From Clostridia bacterium (GTDB lineage: Bacteria > Bacillota > Clostridia > TANB77 > CAG-465): 48,075 nt of DNA. The position numbers and the translations under genes were made by a program. The stretch is taken from positions 1 to 48,075 of the forward strand of contig JAVXNL010000004.1 of NCBI GenBank assembly GCA_036645795.1, given 5' to 3'. Below the pieces are notes generated by a model, which searched no databases, was not told the origin of the DNA, and saw nothing but the letters and a program-made list of their open reading frames with translations. This document shows positions 20,602 through 41,353 of this stretch, one piece after another; positions within the stretch are counted from its first letter, which is position 1, and each line of letters begins with the position of its first letter.

Positions 20602-20609
20602 ACTCTCTC

Positions 20610-25900: not shown

Positions 25901-26520
25901 TGACTTACATTAAACGAAAAAATTATATTCATATTTCCGTTTTCATCTATTCTCCCTGGATACTTAGCTATAATTTCATTTACTTTATCACTTCTTACTT
26001 CCCAATCAGTCACTTTTACGCCATCAGATGTTACTTTCCATTTTTTACTTACAACACCGTCACCTACATTAATACGCATTTCATTTGCAAAATTTGCAGG
26101 TTCGGATTGCTTTTGTGCAATCTGTGTCCAATGACCACTAAAATTGTTAAAATTCGCTGTATCGGTAGTAATGCTAGTACTACTAGAATCAAAATATATA
26201 TTAGTATCACCACCAGAATAGTTAGATACTACATTCGTATGTAGTATTAATTGCTTATTTGAAAAATATCCTTTTCCTCCAGTAGTATCTGGCTTTGAAG
26301 TAAGCCAATTAGGCGAGTTTCCTTCATATTCTTTCATTGCTTGTCCACTAGCTTGTACAACTTCTCTTATTGTTAAAATATATCCATCCCCAGATGGTTC
26401 TACTTTTGTTACATAATTTAATCCATAACCATATATATCTTTAGATAAAACTATTGCTAACAAAAACATAATAAAAGTGATAATAATATTTCTAGAATTT
26501 ATTCTTTTTATTATTTCCAT
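22972..26520 (-). CDS. Giant secreted surface protein (~1182 aa), paralog of the 16725-20601 gene; no LPXTG
   Basis: ATG 26520 is preceded by AAAGGTGG plus 8 nt; the track ORF starts at an in-SD GTG at 26532. It has a signal peptide (NIIITFIMFLLAIVLSKDIYG) and a W/G/Y-rich N-terminal region. A MucBP-like strand REVYVRHFNKKTGEVIP follows. The C-terminal ~450 aa are highly similar to the paralog. Confidence 0.8.
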   Translation of the reverse strand: MEIIKRINSRNIIITFIMFLLAIVLSKDIYGYGLNYVTKVEPSGDGYILTIREVVQASGQAMKEYEGNSPNWLTSKPDTTGGKGYFSNKQLILHTNVVSNYSGGDTNIYFDSSSTSITTDTANFNNFSGHWTQIAQKQSEPANFANEMRINVGDGVVSKKWKVTSDGVKVTDWEVRSDKVNEIIAKYPGRIDENGNMNIIFSFNVSQADSRYGNEWSGYAGYHLDMDTAWKIYYSGVGAWNAGFRGFVEDEAWNASDGGTWKAGASAANMYDNNLVIPTAEMKPREVYVRHFNKKTGEVIPVSDPQQVLIDKAGNRSKKLGDENPNAGLYSEYYKIKISQNLEASRYRLYAQDGKEYKLIEGKRTTAESIESARNNINDRNKTVNFTSTSTTTPTTNKADVTLIDFYYDVDDVVPPTPEVQTEALYNGKIGTDGCDTTYTPSGENIKPYIVTPKYYLKNLKYEITQDGRFVLSDFVMYKLQAGRFANNTSPDEGIQGRIIGPERTTIFNNLPDGRSNDFPLELTNLNNTFNDEAMKLKNTKYANVSSLPTQDQIDKDLGVKNKSNYTNKDNFKTQYNVPYDKYNGIRQAKGAAVYSEYNLLNGSDSLDKKVYDTANRKYVNVYTPVTIGTVNIKSSDIIDHTTSGASSSNILQKNADFTVSVGKAGNAQIYPNLNTAKYIDCYYLVFNLDVQLVVPTRVRVGNADVVKGVGEIIAKGNAIRVEKNPDGTATFTGKATNNKTTGDIVDQISSSITVIAASYNVPDAALTNAIISQESGYLEGKISSTTTRKYINNGSILYNWPEKLEKDVCNSKVERKKNHGDFGTTLEYKNMVQDAYYYAKTTVVTENIGRIYDFKVTDCTDVNFKDVFRKESSGAAVNALTGNVYYSGVKALQVYTDDINTLTSRDNIYVPNSSIRKIIPLGPYKHVSGQYIQAPKMGYRISFDLKTSGVYNAENAQTQRKIVVTPSYYYISKDGSQYSSKVDLYYKDESGKYKNFKDSGYKISFKPNDGYRSIYNKEASDLKTMSDKLETINISKSFDLTKEMMSSSDNKFIQAWYGEFKLPNSTVAVGGFGSSINNPLKNGYIGVKFDLVAVSGKDGKVKISYNQNNRDKDKKEITNTTEWDYEGYLGIKSGEAVSPSNMAIIPLENAEWKITDQAKYNEIKGTVALFDLDNRAANDFE

Positions 26521-26521
26521 A

Positions 26522-27964
26522 CTAGTTACCACCTTTCTGCTGCATAATACCAGAATCTTCTTTGTTTAATAACAAATTATATATTGCATTTTGACTTATA
26601 TATAAAGTATTAGTTCCTATTGCGTTTGACATACTTACATCTATATATATGGTATACTTGTCATTTTCATATACTATTTTATCTCTTTGTAATAAATCTT
26701 GGAATAATAGATTTTCCTTTGTATTTGAATTTTTAATTTCAAATGTAAGTTTCATTCTTACTTTATATACAGATCCATCATAGTATATTGCAGGAATTTG
26801 TGCTGTTGCTTTTCCTTCTATTTTAATTTTATTTTCTTTAACATAATCTACATACTTTTGATAATTTTCATCGGTATCATTTACAAGTACATATTTTTTC
26901 ATTTCTTTTTTCATAGCATCTTTATCTATAGTTGTATAATCTACATTTAGTATATTATTAAAATATGATTCTGATATATATTTCATACTAGCAAATAAAT
27001 CTTTATTTTTTCTATATAATTCTTTAGGATTTATAAACGTTTTATTATCGTTTATATTAAATGGTATTTCATATGCACTCTTATCTACCGTTGCAAGTGT
27101 ATATGGATACACCCCTGCATTACTAGGTATTTTTTCTGGATTTATGTTTAATTTTTCGCCAGCAAGTGCAATTGTAGAATATTTATTAACATAATTTGTA
27201 ATAATTTCATTTACTTGTCCTTTAAATACGTAATGTTTTCCATTTATTTTTTTTGTATTCTCTACAATTAATTTATTATAAATAATATCATCTATTGCTA
27301 TTTTTTCATCTGGAGTATACATTTCATAATCTTTTAGCGATGCATGCTCTGATGTGTCTAGTGTCTTTCCTAATATTTTTAATTTTGCGTTTGAAAAATA
27401 TCTTATAACCTCAGCGTATGTTACTTTATCTTGGGCATTAGCTTTATTTATCTCATCTTTATTTATAATACCTGCTCTTAGAGCATAGTCTACCCATATT
27501 GCATTTTTATAGTCCTCTACTGGTTTATCTATATAATTTGTTATATCATTTTCATTAAGAGATGCTACAATAGCCATTTTTAACGCTTCTGATTTTGTAA
27601 CTTTTTGCCCTGTTTTTGAACTACTGTTATCATACATAATATCAAAGCCATATACTTTCATACTATCTTCATATTTAAAGTAGTTTTTATATTTTAAATG
27701 ATAAACTAGTTCATATACCCCAAATCCAATAGCTGCTATGCAAAGAATTCCAAGTAATATAAACAATATACTAAGTTTGGATTTAAAAATCTTTTTCTTA
27801 CCACTAGATGAACCATTTTTATCATGTTTTCCATGCTTTTTATTTGACACCTTATTTTCTTTTGCATAAGATGGTATTATCTTTTTTTTGCTATTATCTT
27901 CTAGATTAGATTTGTTTTCAATAACACTCTTTTTTTCATTTACATTATCTTTTTGATTCTTCAA
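26522..27964 (-). CDS. Single-pass membrane protein with a K/N-rich cytoplasmic head and a large external domain; paralog of 20610-22184
   Basis: 480-aa ORF with a TTG start preceded by AGAGGAGG and TM segment LSILFILLGILCIAAIGFGVYELV. Its stop (TAG, 26522-26524) is 1 nt from the next gene's ATG, which suggests translational coupling. Confidence 0.65.
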   Translation of the reverse strand: MKNQKDNVNEKKSVIENKSNLEDNSKKKIIPSYAKENKVSNKKHGKHDKNGSSSGKKKIFKSKLSILFILLGILCIAAIGFGVYELVYHLKYKNYFKYEDSMKVYGFDIMYDNSSSKTGQKVTKSEALKMAIVASLNENDITNYIDKPVEDYKNAIWVDYALRAGIINKDEINKANAQDKVTYAEVIRYFSNAKLKILGKTLDTSEHASLKDYEMYTPDEKIAIDDIIYNKLIVENTKKINGKHYVFKGQVNEIITNYVNKYSTIALAGEKLNINPEKIPSNAGVYPYTLATVDKSAYEIPFNINDNKTFINPKELYRKNKDLFASMKYISESYFNNILNVDYTTIDKDAMKKEMKKYVLVNDTDENYQKYVDYVKENKIKIEGKATAQIPAIYYDGSVYKVRMKLTFEIKNSNTKENLLFQDLLQRDKIVYENDKYTIYIDVSMSNAIGTNTLYISQNAIYNLLLNKEDSGIMQQKGGN

Positions 27965-27978
27965 AACGATTCCTCCTC

Positions 27979-29175
27979 TTATGGATTACATATTGGACAA
28001 GGATAAAATCCTTTTATTGTTGTAGTAACTTTAGCTTTATCATTACCAGTTGTTAGTGAAGCTTCTGCTAAAGCTGCTGCCGCTTGTTTAGATGTTGTAT
28101 ATCTTGGTGATATACCCTCATGTATAGAAAGACTATACTCTGGACAATTTACATCCTTATGATATAAATTAGTTTTAAATTTAGAATTACCACTAGGAGC
28201 TGTCAAATAAAATCTTGTAACTAAATCAAGTTTTGACAAGCCATAAGCTTTTGAGTTTAAATATTTATTTCCAACTGATAGCCCTTGTACAAATGCCATC
28301 ATTCCAATATTGTCTATACTTGAGTTTATATCAGCTGTAGTTGTTGGTGGAAATGAGAAATTATAACTAATTCCTGCAGATTTTGCATATGAATTATTTG
28401 CATTTACTGCATATCCCATTTCTGCTATAACCGAATCTGCTATGACAACCTGTCTTTTTTGATTCAAATTATTTACTATAGTAGTTGCAATTCCTGCATC
28501 ATTATCGTATAAATCTTTGTTATTTATACTGTCTCCAATATAAAAAGACTTAACTTGATAACTTTCTTTTCTACCACCATTTCCATAATACATACCTCTA
28601 TGTACTATATAATCATCTAATGAAAAATCAATTGTATGTGTAGAAACAATATTATTTCCTGTTAAAACGCCTTCTTCTATAGTTTTATTACTACCATCTT
28701 TTTTTATAGAATACGAGTATGTATAGTATCTTTTTGGTTTTAAAGCATGTTGCATTAAATCATTACCACTATTATCTTTAAAAGTCTCTATTGATGATAC
28801 CTGTACCCCATTATAGTCAATTATTGCAATTGCTGGGATGAACATTTGCAAATAATGCTCTGCATTTGCATTTCCTTTTATGCCAAGATTATTATATAAC
28901 GAATTTAAAAATGTATCTACTGCTACTTGTGCATTTACACTTACTTTTTTATCTGTAGAACCAGAATATCCATAATCTATATCTTGATCAGAGTTTTCTA
29001 CTTCTTTCATTTGGTTTGCTGCGTCTTGAGCTGCTGAATTTATTATTTTATTATAATACATTTCTTGCTCTTGTGCTTTTATTGTAAAAGATACATTTAC
29101 ATACACTGTTATAATCATTGGGAGTATTACTCCTATAAATATTAGTGCAAAGTCAGTTAATTTCAAATTTTTCAC
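27979..29175 (-). CDS. TadE/TadG-like pseudopilin-type protein with a C-terminal Ada-like zinc-binding motif
   Basis: The N-terminus KLTDFALIFIGVILPMIITVYVNVSF resembles the TadE N-terminal hydrophobic segment. The C-terminus LYHKDVNCPEY...(~45 aa)...GFYPCPICNP matches the pattern YH....C ... G(F/Y)xPCxxCxP. The start may be the TTG at 29166 (SD GGGGTGA) rather than the GTG at 29175. Confidence 0.55.
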   Translation of the reverse strand: MKNLKLTDFALIFIGVILPMIITVYVNVSFTIKAQEQEMYYNKIINSAAQDAANQMKEVENSDQDIDYGYSGSTDKKVSVNAQVAVDTFLNSLYNNLGIKGNANAEHYLQMFIPAIAIIDYNGVQVSSIETFKDNSGNDLMQHALKPKRYYTYSYSIKKDGSNKTIEEGVLTGNNIVSTHTIDFSLDDYIVHRGMYYGNGGRKESYQVKSFYIGDSINNKDLYDNDAGIATTIVNNLNQKRQVVIADSVIAEMGYAVNANNSYAKSAGISYNFSFPPTTTADINSSIDNIGMMAFVQGLSVGNKYLNSKAYGLSKLDLVTRFYLTAPSGNSKFKTNLYHKDVNCPEYSLSIHEGISPRYTTSKQAAAALAEASLTTGNDKAKVTTTIKGFYPCPICNP

Positions 29176-29238
29176 CCCTTTACTAATTACATTTTATTCT
29201 GCTTTTTATATTTTTAAATTATTATTTCCAAAATCAAT

Positions 29239-29634
29239 TTAAGGACCTACGTAAGTGATTTTTGCATATCCACTTCCATATCTTAGACCACTTTTAGTTT
29301 GAGTATTACTAAGTGTGTATGTAGAATGTCCACCAACATAGCCTGAACCGCCAGCGCCTCCACTATTAAATGAAACTCCTGCGCATCCGCCCCAGTAGCC
29401 GCCACCGCCGCCACCTATATCTGTAGCTTCAGTAACATTTTGGCCATAAAATACTGAATTTCCACTATTTTGAGTTCCAGGCTTTATACGGTCATCTAAA
29501 CCAATCAGTTCCCAAGGGTTATATGTAGTTCCTCTTTCACCAGATAGGCCACCACCGTCTCCACCAGAACCATCATCAATTTCACCTGCATTTTCTCCGC
29601 GTAATATTATCAGAACCACCGCCGCCGCCAGCAA
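29239..29634 (-). CDS. 3' fragment (glycine-rich domain continuation) of a frame-interrupted TadE-like gene
   Basis: This ORF has no SD or signal of its own. Its sequence GSGGDGGGLSGERG...GGGGGGYWGGCAGVSFNSGGAGGSGYVGG continues the glycine-rich domain that begins in 29582-31309. Confidence 0.65.
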   Translation of the reverse strand: MLAAAVVLIILRGENAGEIDDGSGGDGGGLSGERGTTYNPWELIGLDDRIKPGTQNSGNSVFYGQNVTEATDIGGGGGGYWGGCAGVSFNSGGAGGSGYVGGHSTYTLSNTQTKSGLRYGSGYAKITYVGP

Positions 29635-31309
29635 CTATTAGTCTATTATTTATACTGTTTCCAAGTATTCTAATATCAGTTCCGCCACCGCCGCCAAATC
29701 CTACATTAAAACCTGAACTTGCAGGATTCTTATTGCCATTTCCGCCACCGTTATATCCACCTTTACTCCAATTAGAAGCCTCAGGAGTTCCTCCTGTATA
29801 CACATACAACAAATCGCCTTCATTTAATTTAGTATTTCCTGATGAGTATCCACCTTTTCCAGCTCTACTGCCTTTTCTTTCATCTCTTTCGCCGCCGCCA
29901 GATGCACCCCAAACCTCTAGTTTATATGTTCCAGCTTTTGCTATTTGAACTTTTTGCTCCCCTTCAACATAATCAAATGTCTGTCCTACTATATTAAAAG
30001 GAGACATATAATGAGTATTTATATCGACTGTAGGTGACAAATTACAACCAATTTCGCCAATTTTTCCTTGTATATTACTTATTTCATAATAAAATTCACC
30101 TATATCAGATGCATCGTTAATTTGTACATTTCCAGAAAATTTAGAAAGATTTGCAATATTTTTAAGTCCCTGAAGATCAGATACTTTATTTTTTCTAACA
30201 ATATAATAAATACTGTCACCTATATTAACATTTTCTGCTTTATCTAAAAGATATTTTCCAGAAACTATTTTATATGGACCTTCAATTCTCTCATCTACTA
30301 ATCCAATATCTTTTGATATATTAATAATACCAGATTCTGCATATTTATTTTTACTTGCAATTCCTTGCAATATATTAGCTGGTAGTATAAGTTTAAATCT
30401 CTTTGTTGAAGCGCCTGGTGAATTTATATCAAAGTACTTATCTAAATCACTTTTTTCAAAATTAAAAGTCACTTCATATTTTATAGTTTTAGTATGCTTT
30501 TCTTCATTTGTAACACTACTTATAAAGGTTGTCCTAGTAGGAGATGTTTTTTTACCAGAAAGTGTAGTTGAATCTTTAACCTCAGCTAACTGTAAATTTG
30601 CTATTAGCTTATCACTTAAGTTTTTCTCTTCGTTTATGTCTAAATTTATTACCTCAGCCATAAAAGTTATCTTTGTATCTTCTGGAAATTTATACGCTTG
30701 TTTAACCTCTGTTAACTTTACTGCTATATCATCTTTAAATAAATTACTAGTAAGTGTTGTTTCCCAAGTATTATTTTTTACAATTCCACCATAATCTACG
30801 ACAATTCTTTCTTTTTGAGAAGCTGGCGCTATAAGTTGGAATACTGAACCGGCCATTGTCATACTACTATTTTTTAGTTTTACATATAGTTGATCACCTT
30901 TATTTAAAAAATACACATCATTTTTTAATTTTTTACGATTTAGAGATGATGTTTTATCATTTCCTTTAGAATAATTAGCGCCTTCAAATATATCTTCATT
31001 ATAGTCTACTTCAAACTGCTCATTATACTCTGCTGCATTTAAAGTATCTTTTGTAAATATTTTCTTATGTGCCTCTATCTGTATATCATATATATTACCG
31101 GTTGCAGATATTTGATCAATATATTTTTCATAATTGGCCTTGTCTAAATATCCAGTATTTAAAACTTCATCTACAAAATTAGTTGTAGCTTTTAGAGCAA
31201 GATTATATGACATGTTATCTTGTCTTTCAAAATAATTATAAAGTGGAAATATAATTATTAACAATACAAATACAATCATTGTTATTACTACACTTAAATT
31301 ATCTTTCAT
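29582..31309 (-). CDS. Large TadE-like pseudopilin with a C-terminal ALK/LTK-type glycine-rich domain (5' fragment of an interrupted gene)
   Basis: The N-terminus MKDNLSVVITMIVFVLLIIIFPLYNYFERQDNMSYNLALKATTNFVDEV is paralogous to the 32284-33432 N-terminus. The C-terminus TYKLEVWGASGGG...GKGGYSSG...LYVYTGG...GGGGGTDIRI...RLIVAGGGGGS is the typical Gly_rich pattern (PF12810-like). Confidence 0.7.
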   Translation of the reverse strand: MKDNLSVVITMIVFVLLIIIFPLYNYFERQDNMSYNLALKATTNFVDEVLNTGYLDKANYEKYIDQISATGNIYDIQIEAHKKIFTKDTLNAAEYNEQFEVDYNEDIFEGANYSKGNDKTSSLNRKKLKNDVYFLNKGDQLYVKLKNSSMTMAGSVFQLIAPASQKERIVVDYGGIVKNNTWETTLTSNLFKDDIAVKLTEVKQAYKFPEDTKITFMAEVINLDINEEKNLSDKLIANLQLAEVKDSTTLSGKKTSPTRTTFISSVTNEEKHTKTIKYEVTFNFEKSDLDKYFDINSPGASTKRFKLILPANILQGIASKNKYAESGIINISKDIGLVDERIEGPYKIVSGKYLLDKAENVNIGDSIYYIVRKNKVSDLQGLKNIANLSKFSGNVQINDASDIGEFYYEISNIQGKIGEIGCNLSPTVDINTHYMSPFNIVGQTFDYVEGEQKVQIAKAGTYKLEVWGASGGGERDERKGSRAGKGGYSSGNTKLNEGDLLYVYTGGTPEASNWSKGGYNGGGNGNKNPASSGFNVGFGGGGGTDIRILGNSINNRLIVAGGGGGSDNITRRKCR

Positions 31310-31401
31310 AAAATTATATTCCCCCTCAATTTTTAGATATTATTACTATTTTTTTACATCTACTAGCTTTTAATTTTCTTAACTTTTATATAAAGTTTGT
31401 A

Positions 31402-31845
31402 TTAAGACTTAGGTGTTATTGTTACCCTTGCAATTTTTTTGCCTTTCGCATCTACGTTTTCTGATTCATATCTTAAAACATACTCTCCTGTACCAATTGC
31501 ATCTTTTGCTTGTTCATAATTTAATGTTGAAGCTAAAGCACCATGTCTACCAGTTATGGTTAAATTATATCTATTTGTCATATTATCTGCCGAAGAAACA
31601 GAGTACATATCTTTTTGAACATAATTAAAATAGTATGAAATTACTTCAGATGGACTTAATGTTATTACATTATCTACTGGTATATTTTCAATTATTGCTT
31701 TATCTGATTTCACATTACCAAATTCATATGCTTTCTCAGCCAATGTTCCAACTGATGTAAATAAATATATAGTTCCTGTAAGTGCTATTATAAATATAAA
31801 AATATATACCCCTGTGTATATTGATTCATAAGACGAATCTTCCAT
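31402..31845 (-). CDS. Short pilin-like protein with an N-terminal hydrophobic helix (minor pilin candidate)
   Basis: 147-aa ORF with a strong SD AGGAGGTGA. The N-terminus is MEDSSYESIYTGVYIFIFIIALTGTIYLF, followed by a small globular part containing SPSEVISYYFNYV, which is similar to its neighbours. Confidence 0.55.
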   Translation of the reverse strand: MEDSSYESIYTGVYIFIFIIALTGTIYLFTSVGTLAEKAYEFGNVKSDKAIIENIPVDNVITLSPSEVISYYFNYVQKDMYSVSSADNMTNRYNLTITGRHGALASTLNYEQAKDAIGTGEYVLRYESENVDAKGKKIARVTITPKS

Positions 31846-31874
31846 AACTTCACCTCCTTTTTATTTATGTATTA

Positions 31875-32264
31875 CTATCTTGAAAAGTTAATTCTAGTCA
31901 TATCTTTTTGTCTTACTACTGTTGCGTTATATGTTGCAACTAAAGCGCCTGCGTTTTTTTGACCATTAACCTCAGCTTGCATTTTATCAATTGCGCCTGC
32001 TCCAGAAGCTCCTGACACACTAACTACTACTCTTGTATTGCTTCTATATTTTTTTAATGCATTTAAAACTTCAACTGACGTTTTTTTAGTATTTTCATAA
32101 GCATCAAATTCATTAAACTCACCAGTTATAGAATTATGTGTTTCATATACATGTTTATATATTTTTTGTATCTGCCCCAGGCTAAAGAATATCCCAGAGG
32201 TTATAACTATCGTTACAAATATTGCTGCTGCAATTGTTATAGCTTTATTAGACATTACATCCAA
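31875..32264 (-). CDS. Short pilin-like protein (class-III-signal-like N-terminus)
   Basis: 129-aa ORF with a TTG start preceded by AGGTAGGTGAG. The N-terminus is MDVMSNKA-ITIAAAIFVTIVITSGIFF, and it has the shared downstream motif TSVEVLNALKKY. Confidence 0.6.
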   Translation of the reverse strand: MDVMSNKAITIAAAIFVTIVITSGIFFSLGQIQKIYKHVYETHNSITGEFNEFDAYENTKKTSVEVLNALKKYRSNTRVVVSVSGASGAGAIDKMQAEVNGQKNAGALVATYNATVVRQKDMTRINFSR

Positions 32265-32283
32265 GATATCTCACCTACCTTCT

Positions 32284-33432
32284 CTATCTTCCCTCAGCTA
32301 TTTTTGTTTGAATAAGCAATGCATCTACTGAACTTACAGTTCCATCTTTGTTTATATCTGCATTTTCAAAATTAATACCTGATAACGTTAAATCCCTTGC
32401 AACATGGCCTTGTACAACATATGCATCTTCATAACTTACTATTTTATCTCCATTTGCATCTCCTGGTATACGCTCTGTAGCAATCACAATGTTTAATTTA
32501 GCCTCATTTACTTTTTTTCTAAGTTCTCCTGAATCTGCTATATCTACTACTCCATCATTATTATAATCTGCTGCAATATAATTTGCTCCTGTTAAATTTA
32601 CTTTGCCTTTCAAGTAATTTTCTATAGTATTTAAATCTTTTATATCTACTAGATGATCACCGTTTGCATCTCCTTTTTGAAGAGTAGTACTAACTATTCC
32701 ACCTGTATTTTCCGTATGTTCTGCTGCAGGTGTTGTATCTATCATGTTTATAAGGTTTTCTCTGTAATCTTCATTTTCTATTGTTCCACCATAATTTATA
32801 TATACTCTTGTATTATTCCCTGTATCTACACCAAACGTTAGAGTATTAAATAATACTGTTGCAATTGTTACGTTAGTATTTTTTATTATAACGTTAAACT
32901 CATCTCCTACATTCATTGTATATGTATTTGCATCTTTATTATATATATTTGGTATAAGTGGTATATCTTTTATATTCATGCCTTTATACGAATTTATAAA
33001 ATTTTCTGCTGTTCTTCCTCCAAGTGGTTCTATTATCTCCTTTTCAGAAAATCTTTCTTCAGCTAATCCATAAGATAAAATATTTTGTGCCTCCTTCAAT
33101 CTTTCTGGATGTAAAATATAATCTGTTTTCCCAGTTATATCTGTATATGTAGTATTGTATTGATAAATTACAGGGTAATATTTTTTAGCTACATGCTCAA
33201 GCTTTACATCATATACATTCCCTGTTGCGCTTAAATTAGATACAAATTCATTATACATTTGATTTGTAATATACCCTTTACTTGTAACATTATTTACAAA
33301 ATTTGATGTTATTTTTAGAGCTAGCCCATATGATATGTCATCTTTTTTTTCAAAGGATATATATAATGGTAACATAAAAAAAATTATAACTGATATTAAA
33401 ATTGTAAATACTCTTTGTAGATTATCTTCCAT
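32284..33432 (-). CDS. TadE-like pseudopilin fused to two tandem dockerin modules
   Basis: 382-aa ORF with SD AAGGAGGG upstream. The N-terminus is NLQRVFTILISVIIFFMLPLYISFEKKDDISYGLALKITSNF. The C-terminal part has four EF-hand-like dockerin segments: GDANGDHLVDIKD, ADYNNDGVVDIAD, GDANGDKIVSYED and ADINKDGTVSSVD. Confidence 0.8.
   Translation of the reverse strand: MEDNLQRVFTILISVIIFFMLPLYISFEKKDDISYGLALKITSNFVNNVTSKGYITNQMYNEFVSNLSATGNVYDVKLEHVAKKYYPVIYQYNTTYTDITGKTDYILHPERLKEAQNILSYGLAEERFSEKEIIEPLGGRTAENFINSYKGMNIKDIPLIPNIYNKDANTYTMNVGDEFNVIIKNTNVTIATVLFNTLTFGVDTGNNTRVYINYGGTIENEDYRENLINMIDTTPAAEHTENTGGIVSTTLQKGDANGDHLVDIKDLNTIENYLKGKVNLTGANYIAADYNNDGVVDIADSGELRKKVNEAKLNIVIATERIPGDANGDKIVSYEDAYVVQGHVARDLTLSGINFENADINKDGTVSSVDALLIQTKIAEGR
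32293..32673 (-). other. Two dockerin domains (aa ~254-308 = nt 32509-32673; aa ~324-380 = nt 32293-32463)
   Basis: Each module has two D-x-N-x-D-G-x-(I/V)-(D/S)-x-x-D calcium-loop segments, each followed by a short helix (LNTIENYLKG, SGELRKKV, AYVVQGHVAR, ALLIQTKIAEG). Confidence 0.8.
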
Positions 33433-33466
33433 ATTACCCTCCTTTAATTTCTATATACTTTTACTT

Positions 33467-33865
33467 TTACTTTACAATTGTTATAACTGTTGCATTTCCT
33501 TGCCTACTTTTAGTTAGATTATAACTTTGATTTGGATATATTCCTCTTATTTCAGACTTAAAAACACTATTATCTATTCCTCCATCTAAGTTATTTATAT
33601 TAGCCTTACCGTTCATACTAACTTGAACATTATTGTTTTCTAAATAATAATATAATATATTTTTAGCCTCAGTTCCAGTTATTCTATTTTTCTCTAAAGA
33701 CTGAGCTATATTTTTGTTATATAAATCTGCTATATCTACACCAGGTCCTGCTGCTCTTACCATATCACGTGAAGCACTATAATATGTCATAACTGCAGAT
33801 ATAGTAATTATTGCTATAAATACACCAGCGCCTATAGTAATAGACCTTGTAACAACATCTTCCAT
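33467..33865 (-). CDS. Short pilin-like protein (class-III-signal-like N-terminus)
   Basis: The track ORF starts at GTG 33874, which lies inside the SD AAGGAAGGTGG. ATG 33865 has proper spacing and gives MEDVVTRS-ITIGAGVFIAIITISAVMTYY. It has the shared motif TGTEAKNILYYY. Confidence 0.6.
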   Translation of the reverse strand: MEDVVTRSITIGAGVFIAIITISAVMTYYSASRDMVRAAGPGVDIADLYNKNIAQSLEKNRITGTEAKNILYYYLENNNVQVSMNGKANINNLDGGIDNSVFKSEIRGIYPNQSYNLTKSRQGNATVITIVK

Positions 33866-34041
33866 ATATGCCACCTTCCTTATTTTACTTGAATATAAAT
33901 TTTAAAAAATACACTAAAAATATTTGATTTAACTACATTTTTAGCCATACTTTTTAAAACATATATATTAGTGCAAAAGGTACATAATCTAATTATTCCT
34001 TAAATTATATACCTTGTTGCAATAAATATTTTAAACTTTTA

Positions 34042-34446
34042 TTAATTACTTGTAAAGGTAATTCCAGTAACATTATTTCCTGTACCATTTCTTGTTAAAG
34101 TAGATGTATACAAATCCCCTGGATTTACTGTTGAAGTTAAATTACCTATTCTACCAGCACCTGTAGCAGTATTGTTAAATACTACATTATTTACAGTTAC
34201 AGTTAGATTAGGATCTGTGTAATATCTCTTTACTGCAGCTATTACCTGAGAGCCTGTTACTCTAGTATTCCCATCATAATCCGCTGTAAGTTGTGCTTGT
34301 AAACTTGATGATACATTCTCTGCCTCATCTTTACCTTTATTTAACATATCTTGTCCAAGACCTGTTATTAGCATTACTGCAGCTATTACTAAAATTGTTA
34401 TAAACAAACCTACACCAATCATAATTGCTTTTTGTGCATTATCCAT
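34042..34446 (-). CDS. Candidate major pilin of the Tad-like locus (non-Flp, class-III-signal-like N-terminus)
   Basis: 134-aa ORF, the first pilin-like gene after the platform gene, with SD AAAGGAGGGG upstream. The N-terminus is MDNAQKA-IMIGVGLFITILVIAAVMLITGLG. The body is Thr/Asn/Gly-rich. A 167-nt non-coding gap follows it. Confidence 0.6.
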   Translation of the reverse strand: MDNAQKAIMIGVGLFITILVIAAVMLITGLGQDMLNKGKDEAENVSSSLQAQLTADYDGNTRVTGSQVIAAVKRYYTDPNLTVTVNNVVFNNTATGAGRIGNLTSTVNPGDLYTSTLTRNGTGNNVTGITFTSN

Positions 34447-34518
34447 TTTTCATTTCCCCTCCTTTAAATAGACTATATATTAAACTTTTTTAAAGTTTAA
34501 ATCTTATTTGTTTTTTAG

Positions 34519-36573
34519 CTAAAAATTCATATTTGTAAAGAAAGTCATCATCTGCATAATACTTACTACCATAAGTGGTGCAACTAAGTATCCACCTATT
34601 AATATTACCATTGGAGTAAAACCTAATACTTTACCATAGCTTACTTTTTTATGTACAACTCTTTCATTTCCTTCTTTTCTTTTTTCGTAGAAAAAGCTTC
34701 TTTCTGTTTCTAATTCATCAAAAGCTTCTTTTACAGGAATCCTTTCAACTGCTGATTGCAATTGTTCTACAATTCTTGTAAAATCTTTATATGGTACTGC
34801 TTCTTTCAGCTCTTCCAAAGCTTGTTCTGCACCTGATTCATAATTGTTTAAACATGTAGCTATTGGTTCTTTAAAAGCATATGAAAATCTTCCCATCCAT
34901 TCTAGGATTGTTTGTACATCTATTCTATCAATATACATAAGCATTAATATAACTGATTGAAATTGCATTATTTCATTTTCTTTTTCCATTTCTCTTATTT
35001 TATTTTTTATAATTAAAAGTATTGATGGACAGTAATATGCAATTATACCAATTAAAAATGCTGATAATACTTGCCAGAATTTAACATATGAATTTTTAAC
35101 TGTATTTATTTTGCCATATACCCTGTCTACTGCGGTTTTATCAACCTCACCAGTATCTGGATCTACGAAATCTGTTTGTAATTGTTCTTTTGTTACATTA
35201 CTATTCTTATGAGATTCTATATAGCTTTTATCACTCTCCCTTATAGCTCTAGATGCCTCTTCTTGCTCCTCACTTAATTTACCAAATGATAAAAACTCTT
35301 GACTTACTTGTGTATATACACCTGATAAATCAATATATTGCATATTAAGTATTAATATAAAACTCAATAAAAATGCTACTACTGCTGATGTAAGTTTATT
35401 TACATATAGCCATTCTATTGTAAGGTAAGAGTTGGTATTCTTTATAAGAGCCTCTTCCTTTTTATATTTTCTAGTATGCTCTCTTGGTTTAAAAGCATCT
35501 ACTAGCATTTTAACAATTGTTACCCTATATAACTTATCTTGCCATTTTGCATTTGATACTCTGTCAAATTTTATTTCTTCAACATCTTCTTTTATTATTC
35601 TAAGCATTAAATAAGATATAAATATTGATACTATTATTATTGATTGTATCAAAAATCCAATACCACTTGCATAAAAGTTTGATAACGCCGGGAAACTTGA
35701 CTCTGCCCATGATTGCAATGGTTTTATTGCAACCAGTGGAACTACAGCTATAATATTTAAACTCCTAAACATATAGTTTATTTTATCTCTTTTTAATATT
35801 TCAAGATATATTTCACTCAAAATATTATTTAAGTTTCTAAGATAAACTGATGCTCCAGCAACTTTTCTATCACCTAAATCATATGTTAGATAAGATACTC
35901 CTGCAAATAGTTTTAAAAATCTATTTGGAGCTGTATCATAATACTTCTCTAGCTCAATTTCTGGATTATCTGCAAGAAGAGCATCTTTAATTTTTCTAAG
36001 TTGTGGTACAATTTCTTTATCTCCTAAATCATCTATTGCAGTATTAAAAGATTCATCTACCATACCATGTTCATGGAAGGCATGTCTAATACTTGTAAAT
36101 GCTTCGGGCATTTGTTTTAATATTTTCTCGGATACTGATGTTATACCAATGTCTATCATTTTTTCTGTTATTATTAATACACCTATTATAACAATAAGTG
36201 ACATATATAAATCATTAACCAAATTTAATAAAACAAATAAAGATATAAATAAAAATACTACTGCTATAAGCATTGATTTACCAGTTCTTCTTCTAAGCTC
36301 ATATTCTGTGTAATCATTTGTCATTTCCATTTTCAATCTTGTTTTTTTCGTATAATATTTTAAAACTGGCATTTTTACAAATGTAAGATAAACAACTAAA
36401 AATACTTTATCAAATCCATCTTTTACATTAAATTTATTTTTTACTACTAACTTGTCTTGAGCAAAAAGTATACTGTTTTTTTTGTATTTTTTCTTTACGC
36501 TCATATAATATATGCTTACAGCAAGTATTCCTACTATAGCAAATACTAATAAACCAATTGCTATATATAACAT
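34519..36573 (-). CDS. Polytopic inner-membrane platform protein with two T2SSF-like halves (fused TadB/TadC, GspF/PilC family)
   Basis: 684-aa ORF with multiple TM segments. It has two cytoplasmic helical regions with the T2SSF-like pattern (MPEAFTSIRHAFHEHGMVDESFNTAIDDLG... and ...IMQFQSVILMLMYIDRIDVQTILEWM...EPIATCLNNYESG). It starts 4 nt after the ATPase gene ends. Confidence 0.7.
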   Translation of the reverse strand: MLYIAIGLLVFAIVGILAVSIYYMSVKKKYKKNSILFAQDKLVVKNKFNVKDGFDKVFLVVYLTFVKMPVLKYYTKKTRLKMEMTNDYTEYELRRRTGKSMLIAVVFLFISLFVLLNLVNDLYMSLIVIIGVLIITEKMIDIGITSVSEKILKQMPEAFTSIRHAFHEHGMVDESFNTAIDDLGDKEIVPQLRKIKDALLADNPEIELEKYYDTAPNRFLKLFAGVSYLTYDLGDRKVAGASVYLRNLNNILSEIYLEILKRDKINYMFRSLNIIAVVPLVAIKPLQSWAESSFPALSNFYASGIGFLIQSIIIVSIFISYLMLRIIKEDVEEIKFDRVSNAKWQDKLYRVTIVKMLVDAFKPREHTRKYKKEEALIKNTNSYLTIEWLYVNKLTSAVVAFLLSFILILNMQYIDLSGVYTQVSQEFLSFGKLSEEQEEASRAIRESDKSYIESHKNSNVTKEQLQTDFVDPDTGEVDKTAVDRVYGKINTVKNSYVKFWQVLSAFLIGIIAYYCPSILLIIKNKIREMEKENEIMQFQSVILMLMYIDRIDVQTILEWMGRFSYAFKEPIATCLNNYESGAEQALEELKEAVPYKDFTRIVEQLQSAVERIPVKEAFDELETERSFFYEKRKEGNERVVHKKVSYGKVLGFTPMVILIGGYLVAPLMVVSIMQMMTFFTNMNF

Positions 36574-36577
36574 CCTA

Positions 36578-38470
36578 TCACCTCCAAGCTGTATCTATGA
36601 AATTGTCAAAAGTTCTAATATCTTCTGATGACATATTATCTCTCATAGCTTTAATATTTTCTTCGGTCATTGGATTTCTAAATACATATTTTCCATCTAC
36701 AAACTCAACTATATTTTTATATGTATAATTGTTTGTTTGTGTCATATGTTGGAAATATTCAACTGCATTGTCCATGAATTTTTCCATCTTTTGGTCCATT
36801 TCTTTTGCTTTTCTATAATCATTATTATATGTAAATGTTGGTTCCAATGGTATACATTCTGTTATTCTTTCAATAAATCTTGTACCATCTACACCTCTTT
36901 TTAAATGTATATCAAAGTTTATTACTTGAACAACTTGTACTTCTGCTACATTTTCAGAATTAAACATTCCAATTTTAAGTAATGAGTTTCTAAGTGCTGT
37001 TATTAAGTTTGGAAAAGTCTTAGCATGATGAGTAAACAAAGTAAACTTTGATGCAACCTGTGCCATTTGAATCATCCAAGCAGCAACTGGATCTGTTGCA
37101 ACCTCACCTAAGATATTAACTCCACCATCAGTTTTCTTCTGAACATCTAGTCCTTGTTGTCCATTTATTGTATCTGTTTCTCTAAGAGATAATATATTGT
37201 GGTATGGGTAAATCTTCCTTAAATGTAATTCAAATGCTGTCTCTTGAACCCTTATAGTAATTGTCGGATATAAATATTTCATTATAGCCATCAATAATGT
37301 AGTTTTACCACAACCTTGCTCACCTGTTATCGCAGTTACTCTAGCACCTCTAATTAAATACTTAAGTAATTCAATAACTTGTTCTTTACCTTCATGACAA
37401 AGTAGTTGTTCAGGTGATATTAATGTTGGAGGAGCAAATTTTCTTACGAAAAAAGCCCATGATTCAGAAAAGTTTGGTCTTAAAACAACTACCCTGGATC
37501 CATCTTTCATTTCATTTATTTTATAACCAACAGATTCAGACAACTGACCTGGATTATTATATTTATATATATTTTGACATACCCTTTTAAGTTCTGTTTC
37601 ACTTCCAAAAGATAAAAATGACAAATACGTCGCTTTACCTTTATAAAATATCCAAACAGAATCATAAGACATTGGTATTTTTCTATCATTCATTTGATCT
37701 AAATAGTCATCCATACCTACTACTTGATCTAAAAATGATGGTGGAATACCTGATACACCACCTGATATACCATCAATGTTCATATCACGTATATCATCTA
37801 CTACACTGTACCCTTTATATCTTTGATAAATTCTTTGAACTACAATTTCTAATTTATCATCAAAGGATAATGTATCTTGATTTACTTCTAAAGCAAATAT
37901 ATTATCGATTTCTTTTTCTGTTATAACATAAGAAGAAACTTCCGGATCAAATTCAAATTTAGGAGTGTCTAGCTTATATTTTGTTATAATTTGTGTTAGT
38001 GCTTCTGCTTTATATTGCTTTTTGTAAATATGCATTAATATCTCAAATTTATCTTGAGATTCTAACTGTTCAAAATCTTCAAAAGGTATTGCATTATTTA
38101 TATTAAAGTTGTTTACTTTATAGTTGTTTCTAAGCAAGTCAAACATTAGTGTTTTTACATACTTTTTATCACTTGCATCCGCATAACCAGCACCTTTTAA
38201 AGCTTTTTTTAGCTCATATTTTACATTTTTTCTTCTTTCAAATTCCTCTTCAGAAAGCGCTAAATCATATAAATTCATTCTAGTTATCTCATCAAATTGC
38301 TTCTTTATAAATTCCTGCATTTTCTCAAGACTAAATTTTGCTTTCTCTCTTGACAAATCATTTACTTGTTCTTTAGTTTCAGATTTTTTAATCTTATACC
38401 AGAAGAAGCCTCCTACAAAGGCAATAAGTAAGATTATCAATATAATATTTAATATAAATGCAATACTCAT
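36578..38470 (-). CDS. CpaF/TadA-family (T2SSE/VirB11-like) secretion ATPase with an N-terminal transmembrane anchor
   Basis: 630-aa ORF with SD AGAGGTGA 5 nt upstream of the ATG. It has Walker A ITGEQGCGKTTLL, Asp box RVQETAFEL, Walker B-like GVNILGEV and His box TLFTHHAKT. The N-terminus MSIAFILNIILIILLIAFVGGFFWY is a predicted TM helix. Confidence 0.8.
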   Translation of the reverse strand: MSIAFILNIILIILLIAFVGGFFWYKIKKSETKEQVNDLSREKAKFSLEKMQEFIKKQFDEITRMNLYDLALSEEEFERRKNVKYELKKALKGAGYADASDKKYVKTLMFDLLRNNYKVNNFNINNAIPFEDFEQLESQDKFEILMHIYKKQYKAEALTQIITKYKLDTPKFEFDPEVSSYVITEKEIDNIFALEVNQDTLSFDDKLEIVVQRIYQRYKGYSVVDDIRDMNIDGISGGVSGIPPSFLDQVVGMDDYLDQMNDRKIPMSYDSVWIFYKGKATYLSFLSFGSETELKRVCQNIYKYNNPGQLSESVGYKINEMKDGSRVVVLRPNFSESWAFFVRKFAPPTLISPEQLLCHEGKEQVIELLKYLIRGARVTAITGEQGCGKTTLLMAIMKYLYPTITIRVQETAFELHLRKIYPYHNILSLRETDTINGQQGLDVQKKTDGGVNILGEVATDPVAAWMIQMAQVASKFTLFTHHAKTFPNLITALRNSLLKIGMFNSENVAEVQVVQVINFDIHLKRGVDGTRFIERITECIPLEPTFTYNNDYRKAKEMDQKMEKFMDNAVEYFQHMTQTNNYTYKNIVEFVDGKYVFRNPMTEENIKAMRDNMSSEDIRTFDNFIDTAWR

Positions 38471-38493
38471 TGTTTCACCTCTTTTTATCTATT

Positions 38494-39309
38494 TTATACA
38501 TCTCTTATTTTAGCAAGTTCTATTATTTTTTCAACAATTCCATTAACTTGCGATATAAAATAACCATTATAGTCTTTTATATCTGCGTTCATATTTCTAT
38601 AGAAGAAATCTATTACATTTCCACTATTACATGCATCTGCAAATAAATAGTTATGTGGTACTGTAAATATTGGTTCTTTTATAGTGTTTTTTAATTTTAT
38701 ATTAGATGAATTAAATTTTGCTTTACCTTCATAGTCTCCAATAACAAATATTTTACTTTTGTTTTTCAACTCATCCATGTTATTTACTGTCTCAAAAAAG
38801 CCATCCAGTTTTACAACATCTTGATTTACAACACATACAACAATTTCGGCATCTAAAAGAGTGTCTGATATAAATTTATCGTCTGCAGACTTTGGTAAGT
38901 CAATAAATACTACATCATAAATTTCCGCTGCTTTTCTTGTGATATATGGTAAATTGTTTACAAGGTCCGAATATCCATCCATATCTTTAGAATTCATTCC
39001 ATATAGTATATCAAGTCTATCTTTTAAAACAGGCTTTGCATAGTTTTGTATAGCATCAGATGTTAATTTGTTACTTGTTACAAGCCTTATTAATGCACTA
39101 ATTCCAATACTTGAATTATCAAATACTCCACTTGACTTTAAATCATCATACGGTGTAAATGAAGATTCTATCTTCTTAGAATTGTAGTTACCTTGCATAA
39201 GTAAGCTATTAACTTTATGAGCTATTCCCATTAAAGTACTAACTGCAATTGCGGCATGTGTATTACCCGACATATTTTTTGTCGGACTCCAAAATACAAT
39301 TCTTGGCAT
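38494..39309 (-). CDS. TadZ/CpaE-like ParA/MinD-fold protein with a degenerate Walker A
   Basis: 271-aa ORF. IVFWSPTKNMSGNTHAAIAVSTLMG occupies the position of the deviant Walker A (KGGxGKT) but lacks the lysines. A Walker B-like VVFIDLPKS is present. Its start overlaps the upstream stop (TAATG at 39307-39311). Confidence 0.6.
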   Translation of the reverse strand: MPRIVFWSPTKNMSGNTHAAIAVSTLMGIAHKVNSLLMQGNYNSKKIESSFTPYDDLKSSGVFDNSSIGISALIRLVTSNKLTSDAIQNYAKPVLKDRLDILYGMNSKDMDGYSDLVNNLPYITRKAAEIYDVVFIDLPKSADDKFISDTLLDAEIVVCVVNQDVVKLDGFFETVNNMDELKNKSKIFVIGDYEGKAKFNSSNIKLKNTIKEPIFTVPHNYLFADACNSGNVIDFFYRNMNADIKDYNGYFISQVNGIVEKIIELAKIRDV

Positions 39310-40022
39310 TAATCTCTCCTCCTTTTAATTTGTTTTGTAACTTCTTTTGAAGTTACATCCTCTATTATCTGTGATGTTAAATCAGAAATTAGCCCTATAT
39401 ATGTTTTAGTATGCTTTTTTATATCTATAAGTCCACTAAACTGTGAGTCTATATCTACTAATTTGTCTTGTTCTTCAAGTTGTACTTCGTATTCTGGCTC
39501 TTGCCATTTCACATTATAACTGCTGATTTGAGTTTCAAAATACTCTTCTGCAGCTCTTGACATATATGTCTTATATAGTACCTTAGTTATCTTTATATCT
39601 TCTTCTTGAGGATTATATACCCTTATTGCTTTTATTAAGTCTTTATTTTTTACAACTGATAATATACTTGTATCTACAAAAAAGAATAATTTATCTATTC
39701 CTCTTGTTCTAAAAAACTCATACCCTTTTGGGCTGTCTATATCAATTATTATATAATCATACAATGATATATTAATTCCTTGATCTACCATATAATTTTC
39801 TACATCATGCATACTATCAAAACCTACAGCAAAGTCTATGTTATTATATTGAGTAACATATGATCTCCCCATATTGTCTAGTGATGGTACAACACATTTT
39901 ATTTTTTGGTCTAAGGTGGCGTCTACAACGAGCACCGCCTTATCCATTATATTTATTGTTCTAGCAAGATTTATAGCAAAGTCATATTTATCTACATATC
40001 CCATCATTCCAATTACTTGCAT
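39309..40022 (-). CDS. Second TadZ/CpaE-like ParA-fold protein with no recognisable P-loop
   Basis: 237-aa ORF. VIGMMGYVDKYDFAINLARTINIMDKAVLVVDAT follows the MinD/ParA N-terminal layout without GKT, and it has a Walker B-like YDYIIIDIDSP. Confidence 0.5.
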   Translation of the reverse strand: MQVIGMMGYVDKYDFAINLARTINIMDKAVLVVDATLDQKIKCVVPSLDNMGRSYVTQYNNIDFAVGFDSMHDVENYMVDQGINISLYDYIIIDIDSPKGYEFFRTRGIDKLFFFVDTSILSVVKNKDLIKAIRVYNPQEEDIKITKVLYKTYMSRAAEEYFETQISSYNVKWQEPEYEVQLEEQDKLVDIDSQFSGLIDIKKHTKTYIGLISDLTSQIIEDVTSKEVTKQIKRRRD

Positions 40023-40085
40023 CTATTATTCCTCCTACGTTTGTTAATTTACATTCCTAAAAAAACCATCTTTTTAATTTATTAG

Positions 40086-41174
40086 CTATTTTGCTGGTTT
40101 ATTAGTTGTTTCTGGTGCTGGTGCTGGTGCAGTTTGTGCTGAGTTTTTAGAATCTAATAATTCTTGTCTTTGCGTTTTTTGATTTGTTATTGATTGTTGT
40201 GCTCCAGTTACTACATTTTTATATTCTTCACCGCTTGTAGTTTGATATCCATTTATTCCATTTTCTAAATTTGAACGAGCTTCAGTACTTAATTTTTCTT
40301 TTGCTTGTTCAAGTATATTTTTATTTGTTTTCATCATATCCATAACTTGAGAGTTTGGCTGATAATTTTCCATTGTTCTTGTAACAGTAGAAGCATAGTT
40401 TTTATATTTTGATATTAAATCAAATAATATTTTTGTTAACTCTTCTTCAGTTGCCTCTTTTATAGTTGCTTGTTCTTTTTTAATTTCTTCTGATACATAA
40501 CCTTTAGCTGCAACTGCTGAGTCATCAGATATCTTTATTTGTGCATCTGCATCTGCATATTTTGTTGCGTAAAGTTTTGAACCTTGTTTTAAGAAAGAAT
40601 CAACCATAGCAGAATTTAAAAGTAATCTTTCATCTTCTGCAAGTTGTACCCACATTGTTTGTCCTGCTATTTTAGTTACATTTTTTTGTGCAAGTACAAT
40701 ATAATCTGTACCATTTGGATACATTATTCTTACATCTACTTTATCACCTTCAACTAAATCACTTGGCATAAGAACAGTATTTACTTCTTGATCTCTTACA
40801 TCAGAAGAAATTATTTCATCTGTTACCATAGATTTAGTTAATGGAACTTTTGCTGCTATATTATATTTAGCAACTTTACCTACAGCATAATCTCCATCAA
40901 GAGTTGTTATAGCATCAGTAGGTACTGTACTATTGTGCACTCTTGTTGTCGCAAGCATATCTGCGCCAATCATCTCTCCTTGTATAACATCTTTGTTTAA
41001 TGTTGTTACCATTTTAGTATAAATAGAATTAAACTTTTTGTTTGTTCCTTTTTCATAAGTTTTAACAGTAGATATTGCCCACCAAACTGTTAAACCAATA
41101 CCTACAACGCCAACTGCAAGGCCAATAGCTGCACCTTGCCACATTTTCTTTTTAATTTGACTCATTCCTACCAT
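40086..41174 (-). CDS. cpaB: CpaB/RcpC-like pilus assembly protein (N-terminal TM plus SAF domain)
   Basis: 362-aa ORF with TM segment GAAIGLAVGVVGIGLTVWWAI. The SAF-like segment is LNKDVIQGEMIGADMLATTRVHNSTVPTDAI...VGKVAKYNIAAKVPLTKSMV. The C-terminus has a Q/T/P-rich tail. Confidence 0.7.
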   Translation of the reverse strand: MVGMSQIKKKMWQGAAIGLAVGVVGIGLTVWWAISTVKTYEKGTNKKFNSIYTKMVTTLNKDVIQGEMIGADMLATTRVHNSTVPTDAITTLDGDYAVGKVAKYNIAAKVPLTKSMVTDEIISSDVRDQEVNTVLMPSDLVEGDKVDVRIMYPNGTDYIVLAQKNVTKIAGQTMWVQLAEDERLLLNSAMVDSFLKQGSKLYATKYADADAQIKISDDSAVAAKGYVSEEIKKEQATIKEATEEELTKILFDLISKYKNYASTVTRTMENYQPNSQVMDMMKTNKNILEQAKEKLSTEARSNLENGINGYQTTSGEEYKNVVTGAQQSITNQKTQRQELLDSKNSAQTAPAPAPETTNKPAK

Positions 41175-41239
41175 ATATTTTCAACCTCCATAAAACACTC
41201 TAATAATTTTTACATATATGTGTTATTTTCATATTAATT

Positions 41240-41268
41240 AGTATATATCGAAGTTTTAAAAAAATCAA
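41240..41268 (-). promoter_or_regulatory. Possible SigA-type promoter of the Tad-like operon (TTGATT - 17 - TATACT on the minus strand)
   Basis: The reverse complement of 41263-41268 is TTGATT and that of 41240-41245 is TATACT, with a 17-nt spacer. It lies ~65 nt upstream of the cpaB-like start. Consensus match only. Confidence 0.35.
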
Positions 41269-41320
41269 TAGAAAATACAAAAAAAATCATCACTTAGCGC
41301 AAATGATATTTAAGTGAAAT

Positions 41321-41353
41321 AAAGTTGTAATATTTTTGAAACATTACAACTTT
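41321..41353 (-). terminator. Hairpin downstream of the DD-carboxypeptidase gene (probable terminator)
   Basis: 11-bp perfect stem aaagttgtaat (41321-41331) / attacaacttt (41343-41353) with an 11-nt loop. The trailing sequence on the minus strand is only moderately U-rich. Confidence 0.45.

Follow-up and report, generated by a model that had tools for sequence, protein, structure and literature searches.

Raynaud et al. (2021, PMC8179133) and Shahin et al. (2023, PMC9934059) describe modular type IV pilins of S. sanguinis, among which PilB bears a vWA module and PilC a ConA-like lectin module. In Dataset S1 of PMC8179133, the cargo of classical pilins includes the PF13385 lectin (229 proteins), the glycine-rich PF12810 (3 proteins), PKD-type domains (PKD_4), and IPR002105 (3/1,219). 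PMC4300822 identifies IPR002105 as a dockerin family, so the fusion of a pilin with a dockerin is already catalogued; a paper discussing such a fusion was not found in the literature, where it appears as three unlabelled entries of a supplementary table (PMC8179133). The gene described here encodes a comparable arrangement. It lies at 32284..33432 (minus strand, ATG start) in the first 48,075 nucleotides of contig JAVXNL010000004.1 from an uncultured Clostridia bacterium, the stretch of DNA referred to here as the window, and its 382-residue product (the target protein) joins a conserved N-terminal carrier module to two dockerins. With roughly even confidence, the target protein is regarded as a modular, minor-pilin-like subunit of a divergent Tad-like machine, with dockerins that would plug into cohesins supplied in trans.

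The target protein shares with the modular type IV pilins an N-terminal carrier, a short linker, a grafted effector, and minor-pilin-like neighbors. Its carrier family also shows an overlapping choice of cargo (PF13385, PF12810, PKD, and dockerin), which is exchangeable across orthologs. In contrast to these pilins, the carrier of the target protein has no IPR012902 signal, N-methylation motif, or detectable pilin homology, and the machine is a remotely Tad-like system and not a type IVa pilus. The dockerin, a rarity left without comment in the survey, is here the commonest cargo, and the target protein bears two in tandem. In concept, the protein further resembles the PilY1/PilC tip adhesins and the CofB-type adaptor minor pilins, where a carrier presents a variable tip effector or recruits a secreted partner (PMC8179133), but no sequence or fold relationship to either group was detected. 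Noncellulosomal dockerins on adhesin-like or giant surface proteins (Peer et al. 2009), such as the nine of a giant open reading frame (ORF) of Omnitrophota (PMC10066038), have been proposed to act in adhesion. The dockerins of the target protein are likewise found outside any carbohydrate-active enzyme context; they differ from the known noncellulosomal ones by their place on a conserved pilin-like carrier within a putative filament-assembly operon, which would supply a concrete mechanism of display.

Both dockerins are real and complete type I modules, far beyond what chance would produce. Dockerin_1 (PF00404) matches the target protein with 63.3 bits (E of 2.4e-17; gathering cutoff, 22.9 bits) in two separate stretches. 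Dockerin A, at residues 253-311 (32500..32676, minus strand), contains one of these stretches and the calcium loops GDANGDHLVDIKD and ADYNNDGVVDIAD (D255-D266 and D289-D300). Dockerin B, at residues 323-380 (32293..32466, minus strand), contains the best stretch (residues 323-378) and the loops GDANGDKIVSYED and ADINKDGTVSSVD (D325-D336 and D359-D370). The canonical ligands D1/N3/D5/D12 are present in all four 12-residue loops, a helix follows each loop, and each module is built from two ~22-residue repeats in the type I layout. Solved cellulosomal type I dockerins are matched by sequence with E-values of 6e-5 to 1e-3: module A corresponds to 6kg9, and module B corresponds to those of P. cellulosolvens Cel48 (2y3n_B) and C. 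thermocellum Xyn10B (1ohz_B) and CelS (1daq), which show the same organization of two 22-residue repeats per module with a calcium loop and a helix. The cellulosomal dockerins belong to free enzymes, whereas those of the target protein are arranged in tandem on a carrier with a predicted anchor in a membrane or filament, in a host that is not a known cellulosome producer. Dockerins A and B align without gaps at 34% identity and therefore look like the product of a tandem duplication. A generic EF-hand identity was rejected: the EF-hand models score 10-12 bits, far under their cutoff of 25 bits, compared to 63 bits for Dockerin_1.

An earlier reading of the window from its letters alone (here, the sequence-only reading) had described an ORF of 382 residues at this place, with a hydrophobic N terminus, four calcium-loop segments, and two complete dockerins. 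The ORF, its hydrophobic N terminus, and all four quoted segments are indeed present in the translation, and the PF00404 score, its lead over the EF-hand models, and the matches to solved dockerins bear out the two modules. The NCBI name for the identical protein is [quoted passage not shown] where MAG denotes a metagenome-assembled genome. Eight contigs carry the identical 382-residue protein, and two of these derive from the NCBI MAG GCA_036646865.1 and from the Logan run SRR25820363; as these are independent assemblies, the protein is no assembly artefact. A strong ribosome-binding site of the Shine-Dalgarno type, AAAGGAGGG, is located 5 nt 5' of the ATG.

The carrier module comprises residues 1-228 (32749..33432, minus strand) and belongs to an unannotated family. 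A query with residues 1-245 leads to 244 homolog clusters, whose members come without exception from uncultured Clostridia or from metagenomes, and an exhaustive profile search yields 173 carrier representatives at an E of <=1e-30 with total lengths of 123-1,559 residues. In nearly all of the relatives listed, the module begins at residue 1, and the few exceptions look N-terminally truncated. From Met1 onward, hardly any variation is seen over the first ~40 residues, which consist of MEDxLQRVF, a hydrophobic segment containing the invariant P22, and FEKKDDISY; this pattern is unlike that of ordinary signal peptides. The N-terminal α-helix (residues 1-52; 33277..33432, minus strand) is composed of the polar segment MEDNLQR, the hydrophobic stretch VFTILISVIIFFMLPLY (residues 8-24, or up to residue 26, by hydropathy) with P22, and an amphipathic continuation. 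In the AlphaFold2 (AF2) model, calculated from a 76-sequence alignment (predicted local distance difference test [pLDDT] score, 82; predicted template modeling [pTM] score, 0.71), residues 2-52 form one continuous helix of 51 residues (pLDDT, ~90), followed by a β-rich domain. The predicted topology is the lollipop known from type IV pilins, with a helix of ~50 residues, hydrophobic in its first half, packed on a β-sheet, and the carrier is presumably inserted in the membrane with its N terminus inside. A polar linker of 24 residues, NMIDTTPAAEHTENTGGIVSTTLQ (residues 229-252; 32677..32748, minus strand), which is poorly conserved and variable in the alignment and is marked by a low pLDDT (53-55) where the model ends on its C-terminal side, leads over to dockerin A.

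The C terminus of the carriers differs by species and consists of nothing, one or two dockerins, a ConA-like lectin, an Ig/PKD domain, or a glycine-rich domain. Ortholog lengths range from 212 to 654 residues in the slot of the target gene and from 172 to 1,273 residues in that of its paralog. Pfam assigns Dockerin_1 to 15, Laminin_G_3 (ConA-like lectin) to 11, Big_13 to 5, and ALK_LTK_GRD to 4 of 75 extended carriers, with PKD, Big_3_2, and Flg_new as further cargo. Of 170 members ordered by neighbor joining, 85 are free of cargo, a single dockerin is present in 58, a pair of dockerins in 3, and other domains in 24. The dockerin is the commonest recognizable cargo of the family; it occurs in 61 of the 170 sampled members, spread over at least four clades, and the three carriers with two dockerins make up the small clade of the target protein. 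Since lectin, Ig/PKD, and glycine-rich domains fill the same position elsewhere, the dockerin gives the impression of a binding module that belongs to the filament itself and faces outward, and not of a hook for the products of the neighboring genes. The sequence-only reading had suggested the opposite direction, with cargo hung on the pilus through the dockerins; given the domains that replace them in other species, the polarity of the interaction is uncertain.

Dockerins are also observed on the second, paralogous carrier of four loci (L008, L009, L023, and L030), with three to five matches of the loop regular expression, corresponding to one to two or more modules, and L030 has dockerins on both the target ortholog and the paralog. 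Four of the five loci from rabbit-gut ("Lapin") MAGs (L024, L029, L032, L033, and L035) possess a carrier dockerin, a higher fraction than in human-derived MAGs, with small numbers in this comparison.

The target gene is part of a long minus-strand gene array with an essentially invariant order. A scan of GTDB representative genomes yields 50 loci; every one belongs to a MAG of uncultured Clostridia, and most derive, according to the record titles, from animal or human guts. In these 50 species, a SAF/CpaB-like gene is followed by two unknowns, a CpaF-like ATPase, a polytopic protein, p134, and six helix proteins, and the target gene holds a fixed place, third in order after the gene in the platform position, which itself stands right behind the ATPase gene. 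The helix-anchored genes are always followed by those for one or two giant secreted proteins, and a membrane protein is paired with every giant. In the window, the conserved block starts with a SAF-domain membrane protein of 362 residues with a weak CpaB/RcpC-like match (40086..41174, minus strand). Two soluble proteins of 271 and 237 residues (38494..40022, minus strand) take the TadZ/CpaE position of Tad loci and show no detectable homology. The ATPase of 630 residues (36578..38470, minus strand) is distantly related to CpaF/TadA and bears a transmembrane helix at its N terminus. Among solved proteins, it is significantly related to the CpaF Tad motors and to no others (E of 1.6e-7; residues 271-546, the catalytic core), and its matches to T2SSE (Pfam) and TIGR03819 are weak and below the cutoffs. 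The polytopic membrane protein of 684 residues (34519..36573, minus strand), with ~7 hydrophobic segments, occupies the platform position directly after the ATPase; no T2SSF homology was detectable with Pfam at an E of <=10 or with the ortholog profile against PDB sequences.

The candidate major filament subunit is p134 (34042..34446, minus strand). Its first ~30 residues are nearly invariant, its C terminus is hypervariable, and it occurs in one to three tandem copies per genome; the family comprises 822 clusters, all named "hypothetical." The AF2 model of p134 (pLDDT, 81) shows an N-terminal helix of 54 residues (residues 2-55) and four β-strands. The invariant N terminus, the hypervariable C terminus, the copy number, and the modeled topology are hallmarks of a major pilin. 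A single N-terminal hydrophobic segment is common to seven consecutive proteins, namely, p134, p135, the target protein, p129, p147, the paralogous carrier, and p398.

The operon resembles the Tad (type IVc) system in its CpaF-related ATPase, with CpaF as the best solved relative, in the SAF/CpaB-like first gene, and in the order of ATPase, platform, small pilin-like gene(s), and larger helix-anchored proteins (compare tadA-tadBC-flp/tadEFG). It differs from Tad in the lack of any cutoff-level Pfam or NCBIfam match to Flp, TadE, T2SSF, CpaE, or the A24 peptidase, in a platform made of a single 684-residue protein, in the transmembrane helix of the ATPase, and in the absence of a G/xxxxEY-type site. 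On the basis of the ATPase, the gene order, and the subunit topology, the most fitting description of the machine is that of a Tad-like or type IV filament-like system which has diverged very far.

The mechanism proposed for the target protein proceeds in several steps. The module of residues 1-228 would anchor the protein in the membrane as a carrier, with an N terminus that may or may not be processed. The polytopic platform, driven by the CpaF-like ATPase, would build the carrier into or onto a p134 filament. There, probably at the filament tip, it would join its small helix-anchored neighbors in a complex. The flexible 24-residue linker would then present the two calcium-loaded tandem dockerins as an exchangeable effector, and these would plug into cohesin modules supplied in trans, leading to adhesion or recruitment. 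Possible sources of the cohesins are other regions of the bacterium's own genome or the scaffoldins of neighboring cellulosome or amylosome producers.

Two groups of results weigh against this proposal, the first of which concerns the filament. A Foldseek comparison of the carrier with the PDB returns 0 matches at an E of <=1e-3 and no pilin in the top 50. Foldseek is weak on pilins and could have missed such a fold; the pilin-likeness of the carrier is one of architecture and not of demonstrated homology. Pfam and NCBIfam detect no class III signal peptide (IPR012902), N-methylation motif, or TadE (PF07811) motif in the carrier, a prepilin-peptidase site is absent from it (no Gly before the hydrophobic segment and no G/A cleavage motif), and there is no A24 prepilin peptidase by Pfam among the window ORFs of >=90 residues, although a gene for one may lie elsewhere in the genome. 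Foldseek of p134 against the PDB finds no pilin either, hhalign does not relate p134 to the carrier N terminus, and the ortholog profiles of the platform, the 271-residue (TadZ-like) protein, and p134 match nothing among solved structures. For the TadB/TadC platform, TadZ/CpaE, and the Flp pilin, Pfam likewise gives no match at an E of <=10, and the correspondence is one of operon position. The connection with Tad rests mainly on one weak ATPase match and the gene order, and the filament of this uncultured organism is a prediction from its genes. Membership of the carrier in TadE or a classical pilin family was rejected at the family level, as Pfam finds nothing at an E of <=1 and NCBIfam finds nothing for the carrier N terminus. 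Together with the missing G/A cleavage motif, the invariance of the N terminus from Met1, and the absence of a pilin among the Foldseek matches, this leaves the "TadE-type" label given by the sequence-only reading unsupported. Its broader description as a filament-associated subunit fares better, with the CpaF-like ATPase, the SAF/CpaB-like gene, the seven helix proteins, and the pilin topology of the AF2 model in its favor.

The second group concerns the cohesin partner. In agreement with what had been seen by eye, the Pfam search finds no cohesin (PF00963) in any protein of the window (E of <=0.01, with the operon proteins rescanned at an E of <=10), a search that covers ~48 kb. Pfam also identifies no cohesin among the 55 non-core ORFs flanking 12 dockerin-bearing loci, and the ortholog profiles of the giant proteins, the 480/524-residue membrane proteins, and p398 match nothing when compared with all PDB sequences. 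Furthermore, many organisms possess dockerins without known cohesin partners, as stated in PMC4300822, which cites Peer et al. (2009). The giant and 480/524-residue proteins, put forward earlier as candidate partners, are not supported in this role: they give no cohesin signal, and species with dockerin-free carriers contain them to the same extent. As the operon genes are universal and the dockerins are patchy, the partner is probably encoded elsewhere. The lack of a cohesin nearby, the retention of the candidates where dockerins are missing, and the adhesin domains found as replacements make a dedicated operon-encoded cohesin unlikely.

The giant proteins are central to a different explanation of the locus. 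In this case, the operon would encode a short, envelope-confined pseudopilus or secretion apparatus (type II-like) that exports or displays the giants, and the target protein would stay at the cell surface as a component close to the membrane or wall. Its dockerins would tether secreted material, possibly the giants themselves via an unrecognized cohesin-like fold, to the cell and not to a long pilus. Such an apparatus would account for the one or two giant secreted proteins with a paired membrane protein that always stand behind the helix-anchored genes, for an ATPase transmembrane helix that is atypical of pilus motors, and for the absence of any pilin family signature in the operon by Pfam; the giants are entirely free of annotation and may contain a cohesin-like fold. 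The patchy dockerins speak against it, given that the giants and membrane proteins are kept equally where the carriers have none, and the profiles of the giants, the 480/524-residue proteins, and p398 are silent on cohesins. In addition, the alternative cargo (lectin, PKD, and Ig) consists of outward-facing adhesin types, and the hypervariable, multicopy p134 resembles a major pilin that is exposed and subject to diversifying selection. A pseudopilus is considered unlikely.

A further alternative accepts the carrier and the filament and assigns the dockerins another ligand. As calcium-stabilized adhesive or structural modules, they might bind a carbohydrate or a host or bacterial surface protein instead of a cohesin. 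This idea is in line with the missing cohesins in the window, around the 12 dockerin-bearing loci, and among the candidate partners, as well as with the lectin or Ig-type adhesin domains that fill the same position in other species. Dockerins are widespread in noncellulolytic organisms, and noncellulosomal roles have been proposed for them in PMC4300822 (citing Peer et al. 2009) and PMC10066038. Both modules of the target protein are, however, complete and canonical, and the dockerins closest to them in sequence are cohesin-binding ones of cellulosomes; a search of ~48 kb of the genome is too narrow to establish that a cohesin is absent. Cohesin-rich Ruminococcus scaffoldins are at hand in gut communities (for the R. 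bromii amylosomes, see PMC4611034). A non-cohesin ligand is given a similarly low probability.

The explanation as an ordinary secreted component of the cellulosome type (a cleaved Sec signal, a catalytic or binding module at residues 30-228, attachment to a scaffoldin, and an incidental place in the operon) agrees with the standard cellulosomal architecture of a module plus a C-terminal dockerin and with an NCBI name that mentions only the dockerin repeat, but it is very improbable in view of a net negative, near-invariant N terminus (MEDNLQR) that lacks an A-x-A site and is common to the paralog, a hydrophobic stretch that continues as a 51-residue helix packed on the domain in the AF2 model, a place between helix-anchored genes that stays unchanged over 50 species, and the complete lack of dockerins in half of the family.

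Compared to the described systems, the new features are the unannotated carrier family without detectable pilin homology, the almost wholly unannotated Tad-like operon in at least 50 uncultured species, and the dockerin as the most frequent recognizable cargo, duplicated in tandem on the target protein; the theme of the modular pilin itself is known. If the dockerin-bearing minor-pilin-like subunit proposed here is correct, it would join two modular systems that are treated separately, the type IV carrier-plus-effector pilins and cohesin-dockerin docking. Uncultured gut Clostridia would have a concrete means of fastening a filament to surfaces or complexes that bear cohesins, and at least some of the many "orphan" noncellulosomal dockerins would be explained. 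A more far-reaching version, in which the operon represents an unrecognized branch of type IV filaments with nonclassical processing whose dockerin tips, found in about a third of the sampled members, latch onto the scaffoldins of other species, is speculative and rather improbable. For bacteria with small genomes, such latching would turn cohesin-dockerin pairing into an interspecies adhesion code and not only a device for enzyme assembly. With ~20 genes, a presence in at least 50 species, and hardly any significant family annotation, the operon is a candidate for a new filament system. In synthetic biology, a natural dockerin-tipped filament would be a ready scaffold for the display of cohesin fusions.

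The remaining proteins of the operon add several observations. The ATPase starts with a strongly hydrophobic segment (residues 1-19) within an N-terminal extension of ~270 residues, which is unusual for the soluble motors of Tad and type IV pili. For p134, PF26613, precomputed on one homolog, was not reproduced, with only subthreshold matches driven by the hydrophobic helix. A simple scan 3' of p134 found no terminator or attenuator of the kind that follows many major pilin genes, and promoter-like sites were not above chance. The minor-pilin-like p135 (33467..33874, minus strand) has an N-terminal hydrophobic helix, and its true start is probably an ATG giving MEDVVTRS. Two further small minor-pilin-like proteins with conserved N-terminal helices, p129 and p147, are encoded at 31402..32264 (minus strand). 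In the window and in loci L001-L022, the N termini of p134, p135, and p129 share a short polar leader (M-D/E-x3-5), K/R-A, I/L-x-I/V-G/A-V, and a hydrophobic run, and p147 has E-A in the place of K/R-A. This leader pattern resembles archaeal-type class III signal peptides, but Pfam models do not detect it, and a peptidase gene is absent from its vicinity.

Three genes downstream of the target gene, the paralogous carrier of 575 residues (29582..31309, minus strand) combines the same N-terminal module (E of 1e-22) with an ALK_LTK_GRD glycine-rich cargo. This domain is split between the 575-residue ORF and an overlapping 131-residue ORF in another frame (29239..29634). The same split is present in two independent assemblies, one an NCBI MAG and the other from Logan, which indicates a real frameshift, a pseudogene, or recoding and not an assembly error. 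The conserved p398 (27979..29175, minus strand) follows; it has a helix at its N terminus, and toward its C terminus, the cysteines C344, C393, and C396 are invariant in the family and the C-terminal motif GFYPCPICNP is conserved. The pattern suggests a metal site or a disulfide knot in an extracellular protein.

The downstream duplicated module (15777..27964, minus strand) consists of a membrane protein of 480/524 residues, a giant protein of ~1,185 residues, and a protein of ~150 residues. The two copies show identities of 44% for the membrane proteins, 41% for the giants, and 46% for the ~150-residue proteins. The giants have no relatives in Pfam, NCBIfam, or PDB sequences, and a homolog search, in which the word index was saturated, recovered 4 sequences. 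By analogy of position, the giants could be PilY1-like tip proteins. The ORF of the second giant (1,183 residues) has no N-terminal hydrophobic segment, and an overlapping ORF of 167 residues just upstream has a signal-like one (both within 16725..20601, minus strand); the two probably derive from a single gene that a frameshift has divided. The 167-residue piece shows no similarity to the N terminus of the first giant.

Large surface-protein genes flank the region at 343..7001 and 45472..47991. They encode a protein of 1,525 residues (plus strand) that combines a thioester domain with 13 domains of the SpaA type, a BspA-type leucine-rich repeat protein of 630 residues, and an RCC1-repeat protein of 839 residues, none of which matches cohesin or dockerin. 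The window, with a GC content of ~28% and genes for SpoIID, SpoIIID, Mbl, and PolC, belongs to a low-GC, spore-forming Firmicute. In most of the 50 species, the operon (15777..42658) occupies the same chromosomal position, downstream of a gene for a PBP5/DacB-type carboxypeptidase. Beyond the operon, spoIID and an M23 peptidase gene are found in the window and in ~10 loci whose 10-kb flank extends that far, and in the window these genes are followed by spoIIID and mbl.

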